This document shows, piece after piece, positions 1,475 through 23,976 of a stretch of 64,000 nt of DNA. The stretch comes from Octopus vulgaris. Lineage: Eukaryota. The DNA lies in the NCBI GenBank assembly GCA_951406725.2, contig OX597823.1:116808001-116872000 (forward strand), given 5' to 3'. The notes under the pieces were generated by a model, which was given only the letters and a program-made list of their open reading frames with translations, made no database searches and was not told the origin of the DNA. How positions within the stretch are numbered: the first letter of the stretch is position 1; every line of letters starts with the position of its first letter. Both the position numbers and the translations under genes were made by a program.

Positions 1475-1677
1475 CAATACGATGTTGAATTCTACATTGA
1501 CATTCATGCCCATTCAACCCTCATGAATGGTTTTATGTATGGCAACACTTTTGAAGATGTAGACCGTCTAGAGAAACAAGCAGTCTTTCCAAAACTACTT
1601 CGTATGAATGCTGAAGATTTCTCCATGTCAAACACAAATTTCAATCGAGATGCGGTGAAAGCTGGTACTGGCAGAAG
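1475..1677 (+). CDS. AGBL4: Internal coding exon of cytosolic carboxypeptidase 6 (M14 zinc carboxypeptidase, tubulin deglutamylase)
   Basis: Pyrimidine-rich acceptor ...tatttcacAG at 1473-1474 and donor AG|GTAAGT at 1678. The 203 nt translate as QYDVEFYIDIHAHSTLMNGFMYGNTFEDVDRLEKQAVFPKLLRMNAEDFSMSNTNFNRDAVKAGTGR(R). This matches from memory the CCP6 segment FYIDIHAHS..MNGFMYGN...FPKLL..NAEDFS...FNRDAVKAGTGRR, including the zinc-ligand His motif. Missed by the ORF track. Confidence 0.93.
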
Positions 1678-16208: not shown

Positions 16209-16274
<66 letters not shown>

Positions 16275-16283
16275 TATACATAT

Positions 16284-16342
<59 letters not shown>

Positions 16343-16373
16343 TACGAGAAAGAAGCAACAAGAATGGATTAGT

Positions 16374-16464
16374 TTTTAGTACAATTGTTTCATACAAAGA
16401 CAGGCTTTATTAAAAGTTGCAAATATTGCAGCAGATAAAAGTGTCCCGTACTCATCAGCTAAAA
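16374..16464 (-). ncRNA. Hammerhead ribozyme (mirror copy in the left inverted arm)
   Basis: Reverse complement of 19236-19326. Confidence 0.8.
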
Positions 16465-16545
16465 CACATATGAATTCTCCAAACATCTTAGTGGGTGAGG
16501 CTACACTCATGAAGTATTGGAGATAATTTCATTAAAAGCAGATTC

Positions 16546-17953
16546 CTAATAAAGAAGTTATCAGTAACCACATAAGCAGCAATATAGACCATGCCCGAAA
16601 TAGAAGTAGAAGTAGATTTAAGGTAACCGCAAATCTAGTGTACAAGCCCAATCATACAAATAGAAGCATAGACCAAAGCATAGGTAACTCGGATAAAATC
16701 AAATTAGATAAATCAAAGAAGCATACAAATAATGGTAATAAATACAATGACTCTGGTGAGAATAATAATAATTCAACGAACCCCGATTCTAATTCAAGGA
16801 AATTTAATAAGAAAGATATAATCTGGCTGAATATTCCTTTCAACTGTGTGATTCAATCGGATATACAGAGCAAATTCAAAGTAATTCTAGAAAAAAATTT
16901 CCCAATCTCTCATAGATATCATAGAATTATTTCTAAAAAAACAGTTAGGATTTCTTATTCAACCCTCCCAAATATGTCCACTTTAATAGCTAAGATTAAT
17001 AATAACAACATTAAGCTAGCCAGGAAACATAAAAATAATAATACCAACATGAATACCAATAACAATTATAATGATACTACCAAAAATAATGGCAATAAAC
17101 TCAACAATAGTAACTATCAAAACATGGGTAGAATTAGTAACCACAGAATGACTAATAATAATATTAATATTAATAGGAGTAATAATAATATTGATAGTAA
17201 TAGGAGTAATAATGTTAATAATAGAAGTAAGGCTAATAGAGAAAATACAGGGAATGAAAACATCAGTGATATCTATAACAACAATATACATTCAGATAAA
17301 AATACTAGCAATAATAGTAACAATACCAATAATGTAAATAATCATGGTAGGACTTTAGACCTAAAGGATGGAGCAGAAGGATCAATAAATAATAACACTG
17401 CTTTAGATAACAGCACCAACTATAAAAATAATAATAATAATAAAGATAATTATACTCATGATAATCAAAATAACAGGAACATGAGACATCTATCCATGAA
17501 TAATTCAACATCTGAAGTTGATCCTCCTGCGTGTAAGTGTAGAATTAAGTCAAAATGCCTGGCACCTGGTCTATGCGGGGTAAGTAACGTAATCTATAAA
17601 TGTACCATATCTACTGAGAATAACAAATTTTTTTACATTGGTTGTACGGTAAATTTTAAGGATAGAGTTAGAAACCACATCCATCTTTTAAATTACGTCA
17701 TAAGGCTGGTACCACCACACTTTCAAATAAGATCTGGGAACTCAAAAATAATAATAGTAATTATAACCTTAATTGGGAAATAGTTAGAAGAGCAATGCCG
17801 TATAAAAATAATAGGGTTGGTTGCCAACTCTGCTCCATGGAGACGTATGAAATTCTAAAGCATAGAAAGAATAAGGGTTTGTTAAATAACCATATTGAAT
17901 TAGGTCAATTTTGTGTCCACGCAAAATTGAAGACTCTAAAATATTTTAAATGA
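16546..17953 (+). pseudogene. PLE polyprotein C-terminal part: post-RT linker, Asn-rich insert, CxCx5C, GIY-YIG endonuclease (one frameshift near 17681)
   Basis: KKDIIWLNIPFN...FPISH.YH.I...TVRISYS.LPNM, then CKCRIKSKC, then VIYKC...FYIGCT.NFKDRVRNH. After the frameshift: SFKLRHKAGTTTLSNKIWELK...NWEIVRRAMPY...CQLCSMETYEIL...LLN...FCVH...* (TGA 17951-17953). Confidence 0.88.
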
Positions 17954-19235
17954 ATAACAGTATAGAATAATCGTAAGAAGATAGATAGATAGATCTAGCT
18001 TGTTTTTTACTAGTATAGCATAACTTTAATTTTTTAAGTAGATAACTGCGAGCTCTCACACTACAGTTATCTCTTTCTTTATAACTGCACCTGATTTTGA
18101 ACACAAGGAAACAAATAGTACTTGTACGTTGCTTAAATGAAGTTTTAATTGACTTTATAGTTAATTTTAAATTTTTATTTTTTAATTTTTAATTTTTAAT
18201 TTAATCTAATTTAGGTAACACAACTTAAATAAAATAAGTTACTAAGGCTTCATAATTCTATTACAAAATTAAATAAGTAATGCTGCTCCCTTGAAAGTAG
18301 TATAAGAAATTTCAATATAATAAGCAATTCCCCCACACCTTGTAAACTTACTTCTAAGTATTGACCTGTAGTCGGTCAATGTATAGATAGTAACGACAAC
18401 ATTTTAAGACAGTAACAGTAATAAATGAATAAATTTAAATGACCTCTTGCTAGTATTGCACTTATTTTCTCTTAATGTATTTCCATTTGATGATAGCCTT
18501 TGACCCCTCTATCCCTGACCTTGTTATCTCTTTAGATTCTAGTATCTGCTTTCAGCTACGTCAGGTTGGCAATAAATAGCTGTTTACTGGTCAAAAATAA
18601 TATTCTCCTTATAGTTCTTAGATTCCTGCAAATTTCGAAGTCAGCCAGGCTGTCTACAAACTTTTCTGTGTAGTAAGGTTACCTGCGACCCTTTTCCCTC
18701 TCAGTTGTCACAGTATACTCTATGTGGGCGTTTTTTCTTTTTTCCCCTTTTTTCTTTTTTCTTTTTCTTTTTTCTTTTTTCTTCGTTTTTCTTTTTTCTT
18801 TCTTTTTCTTTTTTTCCTTTTTCCTTGTTTCTTTTCTTCTCTTTCCTTTCTTTTCTTTTCTTTGCTCCACAATAATTCCTTCAGCCTTTAGAAGTCATAA
18901 CATAGCAGTCTTGTGAAGAGAACAGTAATGTGGTAAATACCTTATCATATAGCATGAAATTATACCCACCTCATTGTGGATTAACCATGGATAAATTCAT
19001 CGTCTGTGAGTATGAAACACCTCCTCATATCTCTGGAAATTTACACCTACACTACGGATTAATTCACCTTCTCTGTGAAGCTAATAAGCTTTTTAAAACC
19101 TGTGATAAGACTGTGCATCATCATTAAAGAACTTCGGAAGTCTGTTTACAACCTGAATCTGCTTTTAATGAAATTATCTCCAATACTTCATGAGTGTAGC
19201 CTCACCCACTAAGATGTTTGGAGAACTCATATGTG

Positions 19236-19326
19236 TTTTAGCTGATGAGTACGGGACACTTTTATCTGCTGCAATATTTGCAACTTTTAATAAAGCCTGT
19301 CTTTGTATGAAACAATTGTACTAAAA
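19236..19326 (+). ncRNA. Type I hammerhead ribozyme in the PLE 3' arm
   Basis: UUUUAG-CUGAUGA-GUACGGGACA...UGUCUUUGUAU-GAAA-CAAUUG-UA|CUAAAA. 6-bp stem I, extended stem II, palindromic stem III, cleavage predicted after 19320. Confidence 0.85.
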
Positions 19327-19372
19327 ACTAATCCATTCTTGTTGCTTCTTTCTCATTTATAATCACCCCACA

Positions 19373-19925
19373 TTACTGTATGGTTAACACGATATAGTTT
19401 TCTGGACACCGCTGGTCACAGCACGCTGTCCATTCCTCTCTGGAACGCACCTTTCTCATCCACGTGATCCCAATCATCCTCCTGAAATTGTAACTCCACT
19501 GTCGTGGAGGTCTTCCGGGTGGTCTTTTCCGCTCGCACGGGTACCACTCGACAACTGCATGCGTCCACTGATTATCGATGAGCCGGGCGACATGTCCAGC
19601 CCATCTATACTTGCTGCGAGTATACTCTGTGATGACATCTCTCACGCCGGACTTCTTTCTGATGATCTTGCTACTGATGTGCTCTCTCAACGAGATACCA
19701 AGCATTGACCTTTCCATGGCTCTTTGAGCCGTTACCAGTCTTTGCTCTTCTCTCTTTGTGGTAGCCCATGTTTCACTACCATATAACATTGTAGGCAGAA
19801 CTGCACTGTTAATGAGGTTGGCGCGGGTGGTCCTGTCCAACCTTCCCTTGAACACATCCCTTATGCCATTGAACGCCTTCCATCCGGCCCTTACTCTCCG
19901 TGAGATCTCCTTTTCGATATCTCAG
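19373..19925 (-). mobile_element. RTE-clade LINE 3' fragment
   Basis: [13 protein letters not shown]...VLPTMLYGSETWA...AQRAMERSMLG...KYRWAGHVAR...RKRPPGRP..W. Confidence 0.9.
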
Positions 19926-19982
19926 CATTATATATATATATAATGAATACATAAATATATTTATATATATATATATATAATG

Positions 19983-20016
<34 letters not shown>

Positions 20017-20017
20017 G

Positions 20018-20057
<40 letters not shown>

Positions 20058-20060
20058 TAC

Positions 20061-20092
<32 letters not shown>

Positions 20093-20659
20093 CATACATA
20101 CATACATACATGTATGTATGTATGTATGTATGCATGCATGCATGTGTATCTAGTGTTTAAGGTCTCTGTTTAGAAGTAAATTTCCAAGTTTGAATCTAAG
20201 CCAAACTTGGCATGACTTACTTGCTCAACATTAGAACTCCCAATGCCAATTTGATTGGAACTATTTATAAATGAAAGCAGAAATATTAGCAGGTAATAGC
20301 TCAGAAAAAACAATAAGTTGTATTATTAAAAGTGTAACATCTATGATTCTGTGCCATCAAATATCTTATCTTCATTGACCATCTAAAGAAGAGCCATTTG
20401 GCTGATTGGCATTTCCGCCTGAACAAACACACTCCAGCATTTAGCACAATACGTGCAGTCTCTTTTCTCTGTTTTTTTTTTGCTTTTCTTTTTGCCACTA
20501 TCATGTCCTCTGCTCTCCTTTGAGTTGGCTGCTCTGTTGGTGCATTGAACTGCTTCCTTCTCTAAAATAACCAATATGTCTAAATTTTATTCACAGAACA
20601 TTGGCTCTCTGGAACCTCCACCCTGCAGGTTTTAGCCCAGATCACATTTATACACACAG

Positions 20660-21180
20660 TAGTGATCTGGCTGAATCGTCAGCATGCCAGGCGAAATGCT
20701 TAGCGGTTGTGGGATGATGTGAGCAGCTGGAGAGCTGACTGGAACTTGGGACTGACTGGAAGAGGAAGGGGAAAGAGTGATGCATGCGCAGGCAGGGGAG
20801 CATTGGGCCTTTTTGATCGGGGTAGCTGACAGAGCTGGATGTGTGAGCGCTTTGTCAAGGTAGGGGAAAAGCAGATGCTATTTTTAGTGTTCGGATTGGG
20901 CCATGTGGAAGGGGGCATTACCGCTGGTGAGGTCTGCGTCGACGAAGAGAAGATAGGTGTTCTTATTTCAAATCTCCCACATACACCACAGCGGTATTTG
21001 ACCTCCTGTTACGTTCTGAGTTCAAATTCCACCAAGGTCAACTTTGCCTTTCATCCTTTCGGGGGTTGATTAAATAAGTACCAGTTACACACTGGGATCG
21101 ATGTAATTGACTTAATCCCTTTGTCTGTCTTTGCTTGTCCCCTCTATGTTTAGCCCCCTGTGGGCAATAAAGACATAAAT
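20660..21180 (+). mobile_element. SINE family B interrupted by a solo LTR
   Basis: Head ends ...aaatgcttagcggt at 20707 and resumes gcggtatttg...gagttcaaattcc at 20991. Confidence 0.8.
20708..20990. mobile_element. Solo LTR (283 bp)
   Basis: Termini TGTGG...CCACA (TG..CA inverted), with the exact 5-bp target duplication GCGGT on both sides. Confidence 0.8.
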
Positions 21181-21232
21181 AACTTCATACGCACACACAC
21201 ACACACACACACACACATGATATATATAGATG

Positions 21233-21628
21233 AAGGAGTGGTTGTGTGGTAAGAAACTTGCTTCCCAACCACATAGTTCTGGGTTCAGTCCCACTGCGTG
21301 GGACCTTGGGCAAGTGTCTTCTACTATAGCCTCAGGCCAACCAAAAACTTGTGTGTGGATTTGGTATATGTAAATTGAATGAAGCCCGTCAGATATAAAT
21401 GTATGTGCATGTTTATGGGTGTGTGTCTGTGTTTGTCCCCCTGCCATTACTTGACTACAGATGCTGCTGTGTTTATGTCCCCATAACTTAGCGGTTCAGT
21501 AAAAAGGAGTGATAGAAGTATTAGGCTTAAAAAGAATGAGTCCTGGAGTCAGTTTCTTCAACTAAAACCTTTTTAGGTGGTGCTCCAAAAATGGCTTCAG
21601 TCAGATGACTGGAACAAATAAAAGAATA
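21233..21628 (+). mobile_element. SINE family A
   Basis: Head, (TG)n spacer and tail match 60368-60762. An inverted tail fragment follows at ~21650-21840. Confidence 0.85.
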
Positions 21629-21964
21629 CACACACACATACATACATCTTTTATCGTTATCTTTTGCTTGATTCAGTCTCAAACTGCAGCCATGCTGGAG
21701 CACTACCTTGCAGAATTTTTGCTTGAATGAATCAACCACAGTACATTGTTTAAGCCTGGTATTTATTCTATCGGTGTTCTTTGTCAGACTGCTAAGTTAT
21801 GGGGACAGAAGCCCACCAACAGAGGTGATGGTGGGGGCACAAACAAACTCACACACATGTACACATACAATCACACACATACATATCATATATATATATA
21901 TATATATAATTAGTGAATGGAAGAAATGGAGTTGAACGAAGATTGTACAGAATTCCTTTTATTG

Positions 21965-22048
21965 CATTCTACACATGTTTCAAAGGCCACAATTTTCCAA
22001 ATTCTGATTAAATAAGGATACCATATTGCAGCTTTCTCTTCAGGAAAA
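21965..22048 (-). ncRNA. Hammerhead ribozyme (element-sense copy)
   Basis: Reverse complement of 23642-23725. Confidence 0.72.
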
Positions 22049-22638
22049 ACCAGGAATTACGTTGTCAGAACAAAACAAAACAAAGGCGCAGCAAAGCAAT
22101 TCGAACGAGGACGCTCCTTAAGAGCCCATGGGTAAAATGTTTATCAATGTACGTTGGTGGGGGCCGACAAAAGGTCCGTTGGAATAAATCCAGGTCAGGC
22201 CGCGGTCAAATCTAGTAGGTGAGGAATTAATGAGAACAAGGGGTGTGGAGATGTTCTGTGTGACCAAAGCTAATGTTCTGAATATTTTAAGAATACAGGG
22301 TGTATTTTTTTGGGTGCAAGACGATATCTACCTAAAAGCATGTATGTGTATACTAGCCTATGTGTGCGCTGCCGTATGTTGGCGAGGGGCGCTAGATAAT
22401 GAAATAATTCTGTGTTCGTGTGTGCGTCTGTGGCCTGCTTGTCTGAAATTATCAACGTCAAAGAATCAGGAGGGTTTATAATTCCAGCGTTTGCTTCCAA
22501 AACCGACCAATCGCCTAAGGGGGGTAATTTCCCCTTGCAAGAGTTATTCAGAGATTTTTTAAAAAGTTTTTTCCAAAAATTATTTCCAAAAATTATTTTC
22601 ATTTTCATAGGGTATCAAGGTGTTAATTGTCTTAGGTA

Positions 22639-23004
22639 TCATTTATATGTAAGATAAGTATGACGCCGCCAATGGGGACATCGAAAAGCAGTCTGTAAAA
22701 GCCCGTTTACCAAACGGCCTCTGGCGAACAATATGTGGAAAAGCTCAGAGTTACAAAGATTACACCTCCTTCTGCCTCTATCAAACGGGAGGGCCACCAA
22801 CAAAATCGACCATTCCAGCCTAAAAACTGAATTCGCGTTCTTCAAACGCCAGATAAGTTTGCTAAGTCCTGTGGCTTGGTATTTATTAACGTCGCGAAAA
22901 GTTGCGAAATGGTTCGATATTCTCAAGGCCAATTTTGACGATGAGGCCCCGACATACGAGTAGACATCCGAATCCGTGTAAACATTGCATTGGTAAATGG
23001 CATT
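22639..23004 (-). pseudogene. GIY-YIG endonuclease domain of the PLE (5'-truncated, open frame)
   Basis: NAIYQCNVYTDSDVYSYVGASSSKLALRISNHFATF...TGLSKLIWRLK...EWSIL..ALPFDRGRRRCNLCNSE...RCPHWRR*. Colinear with the domain at 17580-17953. Confidence 0.88.
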
Positions 23005-23641
23005 TTGATGTCCCCATTGGCGGCGTCATACTTATCTTACATATAAATGATACCTAAGACAATTAACACCTTGATACCCTATTAAAATGAAAATAATTTT
23101 TGGAAATAATTTTTGGAAAAAACTTTTTAAAAAATCTCTGAATAACTCTTGCAAGGGGAAATTACCCCCCTTAGGCGATTGGTCGGTTTTTGGAAGCAAA
23201 CGCTGGAATTATAAACCCTCCTGATTCTTTGACGTTGATAATTTCAGACAAGCAGGCCACAGACGCACACACGAACACAGAATTATTTCATTATCTAGCG
23301 CCCCTCGCCAACATACGGCAGCGCACACATAGGCTAGTATACACATACATGCTTTTAGGTAGATATCGTCTTGCACCCAAAAAAATACACCCTGTATTCT
23401 TAAAATATTCAGAACATTAGCTTTGGTCACACAGAACATCTCCACACCCCTTGTTCTCATTAATTCCTCACCTACTAGATTTGACCGCGGCCTGACCTGG
23501 ATTTATTCCAACGGACCTTTTGTCGGCCCCCACCAACGTACATTGATAAACATTTTACCCATGGGCTCTTAAGGAGTGTCCTCGTTCGAATTGCTTTGCT
23601 GCGCCTTTGTTTTGTTTTGTTCTGACAACGTAATTCCTGGT

Positions 23642-23725
23642 TTTTCCTGAAGAGAAAGCTGCAATATGGTATCCTTATTTAATCAGAATTTGGAAAATTG
23701 TGGCCTTTGAAACATGTGTAGAATG
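23642..23725 (+). ncRNA. Type I hammerhead ribozyme in the inverted arm
   Basis: UUC-CUGAAGA-GAAAGCUGCAAU...AUUGUGGCCUUU-GAAA-CAUGUG-UA|GAA. Stem II pairs 11/12, stem I is short, and AATAAA follows at 23727. Confidence 0.72.
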
Positions 23726-23931
23726 CAATAAAAGGAATTCTGTACAATCTTCGTTCAACTCCATTTCTTCCATTCACTAATTATATTAAATTTCAATTAT
23801 CCGCACCAACGCACGGTTGCAACACCATATGGTCTTATCTCCAACCTTGTTTTTTCTGCTGTGATTTTTGCTACCCAGGTATCGGTTAAACTTTTGAATA
23901 ATCTGTAACAAGATAATTCATCTTTCCATTT

Positions 23932-23976
<45 letters not shown>

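Follow-up and report, generated by a model that had tools for sequence, protein, structure and literature searches.

A 64-kb stretch of the Octopus vulgaris genome (contig OX597823.1, positions 116,808,001 to 116,872,000), called the window here and numbered from its first nucleotide unless marked otherwise, contains an exon of AGBL4 (cytosolic carboxypeptidase 6) and two Penelope-like elements (PLEs), A and B, each with outward-facing inverted arms that carry hammerhead ribozyme motifs. PLEs are the closest relatives of telomerase reverse transcriptase (RT), and the origin of their inverted arms and tails is not settled in print (PMC8557442, PMC11167929). The octopus families are young and high in copy number, so that rules can be counted in them: a long end paired with a short one in each insert, matched arm lengths and unusually long tails. 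With a probability of roughly 0.75, we read A and B as recent, 5'-truncated insertions of endonuclease (EN)-bearing PLEs at (TA)n, likely in an AGBL4 intron. On this reading the outward arms are a routine product of insertion, likely arising by priming from both target ends at two fixed sites on the RNA, and the antisense arm is predicted to mask the ribozyme, probably as an incidental effect. The features of the window are as follows.

1475 to 1677, plus strand: exon of AGBL4 with AG acceptor and GT donor, placed by protein matches and splice signals
16209 to 16345: (TA)n-type microsatellite target, left flank of element A
16346 to 16545, minus strand: inverted arm of element A, short end without a tail
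16374 to 16464, minus strand: hammerhead motif in the left arm of A, predicted cut at 16380
16542 to 17953, plus strand: 5'-truncated open reading frame (ORF) of element A, with RT thumb, Asn-rich linker, CxCX5C and GIY-YIG
19155 to 19354, plus strand: sense arm of element A, the portion common to the inverted arm
19236 to 19326, plus strand: type I hammerhead in the sense arm of A, predicted cut after 19320
19355 to 19405, plus strand: tail of element A, long end, the first 51 nt of the family's ~120-nt tail
19406 to 19929, minus strand: unrelated fragment with a 182-aa frame interrupting the tail of A, no Pfam match
21904 to 23005, minus strand: longer arm of element B, short end, carrying the GIY-YIG frame (stop at 22639)
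21967 to 22046, minus strand: hammerhead motif in the left arm of B, predicted cut at 21970
23007 to 23786, plus strand: inverted arm of element B, sense for the host gene
23644 to 23723, plus strand: type I hammerhead of B, 55 nt from core to GAAA, 3-bp helix I, predicted cut after 23720
23787 to 23937, plus strand: tail of family B, long end, 151 nt, followed by (TA)n

The arms of both elements proved as similar as the original prediction had stated. Those of A (16346-16545 and 19155-19354) differ at one of 200 positions (199/200 identical), and those of B (21904 to about 22689 and 23000-23786) are ~99.5% alike, with three inner differences and two at the junction. The youth proposed for the elements was also borne out by copies 98-100% identical across many chromosomes. 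Each element has one short end and one long end, the latter with a one-sided tail (19355-19405 in A, 23787-23937 in B) that had not been described as such. In A the tail is interrupted at 19405 by the unrelated fragment, which may resemble the C-terminus of RTE-type long interspersed nuclear elements. A GIY-YIG frame, said to lie between the arms, is indeed visible in the translations of both elements; in B, however, the minus strand encodes it, and the last codons fall inside the arms. The Pfam search of the window ORFs left the GIY-YIG frames of A and B unnamed. The ORF of A joins the left arm across a 4-nt overlap and has a 1-nt frameshift near 17681.

A relaxed scan of the window gave four hammerhead matches, exactly the four arm copies, as expected from the claim of one hammerhead per arm. 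Each arm has CUGANGA, GAAA and GUA, the last fitting the NUH of a type I core, with helices I-III able to pair; in the sense arm of A the core-GAAA spacing is 60 nt and helix III is palindromic over 8 nt. A stricter scan returned 26 matches in 1.264 Mb around AGBL4 and none in the reversed-sequence control, while none of the 144 Rfam matches at E<=1 was a hammerhead. Seven sequence types with a long helix II (115.70-116.83 Mb, L138-L254) keep their pairing despite different letters. In these types the core and GAAA are 55-78 nt apart and helix III, 8 nt long, reads AC....GT; they are longer than any hammerhead listed for the Hydra clade of PLEs.

Family A was sampled by taking the first 100, by position, of 510 exact matches to a 31-mer from ribozyme A; these fall into 76 sites, and every site was fetched. 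Among those first 100 listed matches there were 24 pairs within 8 kb, every one outward, and no same-strand pair. Joined inserts with two arms were found at 39/76 sites, again all outward. Each family has two kinds of 3' end, a short one and a long one that lies beyond it by ~120 nt in A and 151 nt in B. Nearly all of these ends adjoin (TA)n, and the short sites overlap the target by a few TA-like letters. The 39 two-armed inserts comprised 38 with a long and a short end, one with two short ends and none with two long ends, an excess of mixed pairs with a binomial p of 7e-11 against independent end choice at 0.5. Family B was counted in loci picked for their long end, the 30 that best matched a long-end query; 17 of the 30 had a second end within the locus, which was short in all 17. 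The 28-mer chosen for family B matched a rare variant with only five occurrences genome-wide, the variant carried by both arms of B in the window.

The two arms of an insert are also matched in length. Their 5' extents lie within 25 nt of each other in 18/38 inserts (permutation mean 5.2; 0/50,000 permutations reached 18) and, where both arms exceed 100 nt, in 8/21 inserts versus 2.0 expected (p 1.8e-4). Either arm may be the longer by more than 50 nt, the short-ended arm in nine inserts and the long-ended arm in 11. Arm differences per 150 nt average 1.6 within one insert and 4.6 between inserts (16 pairs). Of all arms in two-armed inserts, 23/76 end 60-100 nt from the short end, near the helix II hairpin (window 19255-19295), which is likely an RT stall site. 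No arm (0/76) starts at the predicted ribozyme cut, in a sample that excludes most such copies; two single copies (C10:116328155 and 116625074) start a few letters from the 5' strand of helix I, right after (TA)n. Positions 73-104 of the ~120-nt family A tail form a hairpin-capable inverted repeat, ~16 nt before the long end.

In the mechanism that we favor, the GIY-YIG endonuclease would cut both strands within (TA)n. One cut end would prime at the short site and the other at the long site, 120-151 nt further 3'. Both cDNAs, probably synthesized together from a single RNA, would halt at similar points and be joined head to head, and in the host pre-mRNA the resulting arms would pair. If both ends prime and the cDNAs are joined in this way, then the RNA 3' ends face outward of necessity. 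The combination of long with short ends, the long tails, the matched arm lengths and the finding that either arm can be longer suggest that both cut ends prime, in a coupled way, at two fixed sites on the RNA. Biochemical results with a purified PLE protein are consistent with this scheme: the protein cuts and extends both strands, its RT begins at two positions that flank the tail, and a dimeric form is predicted for it. Insertion does not need the ribozyme, which is inactive unless the protein is present (PMC11167929). An inverted 5'-truncated copy with a one-sided tail is standard for PLEs (PMC8557442, PMC3846280), and the outward arm layout is the published PLE layout (PMC8557442, Fig. 2 legend). 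A more demanding version, for which we see evenly balanced odds, makes coupled two-site priming obligate: one RT-endonuclease dimer on one RNA would give each cut end its own fixed start, no more than 150 nt apart, and the two polymerases would run together, yielding outward arms, one tail and matched lengths. Self-masking of the ribozyme would then come free and might help the elements to accumulate in giant octopus introns.

Inverted arms could also arise by self-priming, in which one cDNA or antisense template folds back and is copied, with later deletions reshaping the center. This was proposed for Adineta PLEs (PMC3846280), and it would suit the near-symmetric junctions, the 18/38 with extents within 25 nt, some of them at short palindromes, as well as the cluster of 23 arm ends around the helix II hairpin. 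However, the tail-less arm extends further 5' than the tailed arm in 9/38 inserts and in element B of the window, the second partner is tail sequence only at L066 and L129, and about a third of the junctions have filler or gaps instead of overlap. Simple fold-back from the long end could not give the nine inserts in which the short-ended arm is longer by more than 50 nt, and we regard self-priming in general as unlikely. It is scarcely credible that the inverted arms are assembly artefacts from fold-back reads. Perfect palindromes are a known source of such artefacts, but here the arms differ at a few positions, spacers reach 3 kb, the ends fall at two fixed biological sites in 38/39 inserts, and AGBL4 also has older pairs that have diverged to 76-87% likeness.

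A different kind of explanation, put forward in the original prediction, treats the antisense arm as an off-switch through which insertions in introns become tolerable, with adenosine-to-inosine editing possibly releasing the ribozyme. Such a safety switch would be surprising if true; the evidence favors a by-product, and we consider the switch improbable, somewhat more so than self-priming. The geometry behind the proposal is correct, since a read-through transcript makes the antisense arm before the sense ribozyme, with 165 nt (A) and 713 nt (B) of arm transcribed before the cut site. Sequestration holds as a prediction, the whole ribozyme being paired (79/79 nt in A, 74/74 nt in B) in duplexes of -351 and -1474 kcal/mol, respectively. 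Its extension to a functional switch is unsupported, given the routine layout, the rarity of the monomer fold, the persistence of unpaired sense motifs and the editing simulation. The outward layout is what PLE insertion ordinarily produces (PMC8557442, Fig. 2 legend; 39/76 sites here), and the whole ribozyme is in both arms of only 18/39 two-armed inserts and in neither arm of 12/39. The AGBL4 introns, taken as 1.11 Mb between mapped exons, hold 20 motif matches at 19 sites, of which six are two-armed, nine are single antisense (two of them weak) and four are single sense copies that lack an inverted partner within 8 kb; of these four, a pair belongs to the long-helix-II type, one of the pair with a mismatch in helix III. 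The enrichment of inverted arms in introns that the switch was expected to cause was not seen (6/19 two-armed sites in AGBL4 versus 39/76 genome-wide; Fisher p 0.2, with a differing family mix). Unpaired sense copies are fewer than antisense ones, but 4 versus 9 is not significant (p 0.27; 4 versus 7 without the two weak matches, p 0.55). An antisense bias of retroelements in introns is common. The mild deficit leaves room for weak selection. In favor of the switch, Xenopus retrozymes are reported to be depleted from introns, though 42-44% are intronic (preprint 10.64898/2026.07.22.740005), and a fast hepatitis delta virus ribozyme in an intron can abort splicing; a slow intronic hammerhead left splicing unblocked (both as reported in PMC2995048). 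Release by editing fared poorly in a model where each edited adenosine no longer pairs. At 25% editing the duplexes retained about -98/-121 kcal/mol and the core was intact in 24% of molecules; at 50% they stayed at -56/-70 kcal/mol and 1-2.5% of molecules kept all five core adenosines. In this simulation the core is destroyed well before the duplex opens.

The predicted behavior of the ribozyme by itself also bears on masking. The hammerhead monomer fold is not favored (z-scores -0.4 to 0.7), and even without the antisense arm the constrained monomer fold has a predicted probability of ~3e-5 (A) or 1e-9 (B). Helix III is computed to be a 2-bp hairpin at +2.4 kcal/mol in a monomer and an 8-nt palindrome at about -6 kcal/mol in a dimer. 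A lone ribozyme would hardly cut, because cleavage would require either the element's protein or another copy oriented the same way, and no dimer is expected in cis because the inserts have no same-orientation partner. A single minimal PLE ribozyme gave no cleavage (PMC4209133), a review likewise describes the monomers as inactive (PMC6765202), and PMC3365414 had nothing on ribozymes. Given that the arms have the usual shape of such insertions, the predicted masking is more likely a by-product of how they are made than an evolved safety switch. In the literature searched, mostly without subscription papers and preprint supplements, we found no proposal of antisense masking of PLE ribozymes and no counts of long and short ends.

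Several observations weigh against the interpretation of A and B given above. Fold-back followed by later one-sided deletion of the palindrome center could also leave either arm longer. The likeness of arms within an insert could also come from gene conversion or from one active source copy, and for arms longer than 100 nt the rank correlation of lengths alone is weak (rho 0.39, p 0.08). No joined second end was found at 37/76 family A sites (8 long, 29 short); two of these have an inverted piece that lacks an end, and two face a neighboring short end across (TA)n. A pair of short ends points inward over (TA)n at each of L078 and L092; we read these ends as separate insertions. The sample requires an intact 31-mer in one arm and therefore misses very short inserts. 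Three family A copies on C2 (L122, L123 and L124; 206.28-206.30 Mb), 8.5 kb apart in the same orientation and two with identical truncation, probably reflect tandem duplication of host DNA, so that these three sites may be duplicates of one insertion. On the question of masking, the shortage of unpaired sense copies in AGBL4 stands on the same side, and the folding used nearest-neighbor energies only, with tertiary contacts and proteins omitted.

The host gene was identified from the exon at 1475-1677, which matches a protein labelled O. vulgaris at 100% and the cytosolic carboxypeptidase 6 of other animals at 77-93%. Seven further AGBL4 exons lie upstream on the same strand at 115.70-116.07 Mb, 0.74-1.1 Mb away. 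The donor of the window exon is used, as one contig (depth 3.9, from a run guessed to be RNA) continues into the expected next exon. Searches of the assembly found no downstream AGBL4 exon, nor is there one in the window, and the 1.264 Mb around AGBL4, including 90 kb beyond the window, has no N gap. A and B likely sit within an AGBL4 intron, a placement that is likely rather than mapped because the next exon is missing from the assembly. AGBL4 is more than 1.1 Mb long with a 740-kb intron, and its 3' exons are transcribed yet absent from the assembly. An NCBI-labelled model (P0001) has its final exon at 2852-2920; the spliced contig does not use it, and the flanking exons in that model are different ones. 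A second, weak match (2054-2155; 41-50% over 34 aa), which lies 380 nt behind the AGBL4 exon and corresponds to its 3' part, is possibly a decayed partial copy.

A and B are new families of a known kind of PLE with a useful mechanistic footprint. Inverted 5' copies, one-sided tails, (TA)n targets, hammerheads and a Hydra family in O. bimaculoides have already been published for PLEs; for tails of 120-151 nt, a long helix II, an Asn-rich linker in the Hydra clade and counts of end types, the accessible parts of the literature examined gave no precedent. The inserts have the 5' truncation, the inverted copy placed 5' and the tail at one end that characterize EN-bearing PLEs. A near-full copy of family A (L113) has RT motifs followed by a C-terminal GIY-YIG, and relatives carry PF26215 and have the same order. 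Family B showed only GIY-YIG, with no RT in any copy fetched. A direct-repeat pseudo-long terminal repeat (pLTR, partial tandem) was not seen among the first 100 listed 31-mer matches, which include no same-strand pair, or in L113, which has no repeat. The pLTR is described as frequent, not universal, and Hydra-1_Obim is listed as having none (PMC8557442). The linker of family A (window 17030-17530; L113:4165-5178) spans 167 aa with 38% Asn between RT thumb and endonuclease, and is shorter in the relative P0121; Asn-rich inserts in Adineta PLEs were described as unseen in other retrotransposons (PMC3846280). The 5' end of L113 abuts, in opposite orientation, a broken PLE of another type (L113:1115-2218; YLDD, CX4CXXC finger).

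Judged by its motifs, element A has the signature of the Hydra clade, which includes Hydra-1_Obim of Octopus bimaculoides and Penelope-13_HM (PMC8557442). The translation of L113 contains RWK (IRWKT) and DKT (ADKTG), motifs of the N-terminal part of the RT, and element A has CxCX5C (CKCRIKSKC), CxxC and CxH (CQLC..E..N..CVH) and no CCHH. Like the clade, A has a (TA)n target and a canonical type I hammerhead near the 3' end. Element B shares the target, the hammerhead and the EN motifs (CNLC..E..N..CPH), but we call it Hydra-like and do not file it as a member because the CxCX5C linker before the EN is absent from the longer family B frames (L060 and L044). Penelope-13_HM also has a 5'-truncated inverted copy with a hammerhead on each strand (PMC8557442 supplement). 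In contrast to the listed Hydra elements, mostly below 3 kb, family A reaches ~4.4 kb and adds the Asn-rich linker and a 1.4-kb 3' region. The core-GAAA spacing of the octopus hammerheads is 55-60 nt versus ~12-24 nt for helix II plus loop in the listed Hydra elements, and the ribozyme sequence listed for Hydra-1_oBim differs from those of the octopus families.

Outside that clade, the octopus inserts share with Pen2a_Av (PMC3846280) and with the scheme in PMC8557442 (Fig. 2) a head-to-head inverted 5'-truncated copy, an overlap at the junction and a one-sided tail. The tails here (~120 nt in A, 151 nt in B) are longer than the 30-40 bp published for EN-bearing PLEs with inverted pLTRs. The dimer-type minimal PLE hammerheads of metazoans (PMC4209133, PMC6765202) are likewise type I with a short palindromic helix III, whereas the octopus motifs, as predicted from their letters, have a much longer helix II. 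Poseidon_Ac in vitro (PMC11167929) is alike in its two RT starts bounding the tail, in the cutting and extension of both strands, in its AT-rich targets and in not needing the ribozyme. Poseidon_Ac showed no difference in start site between the strands, whereas the octopus inserts imply different sites almost always.

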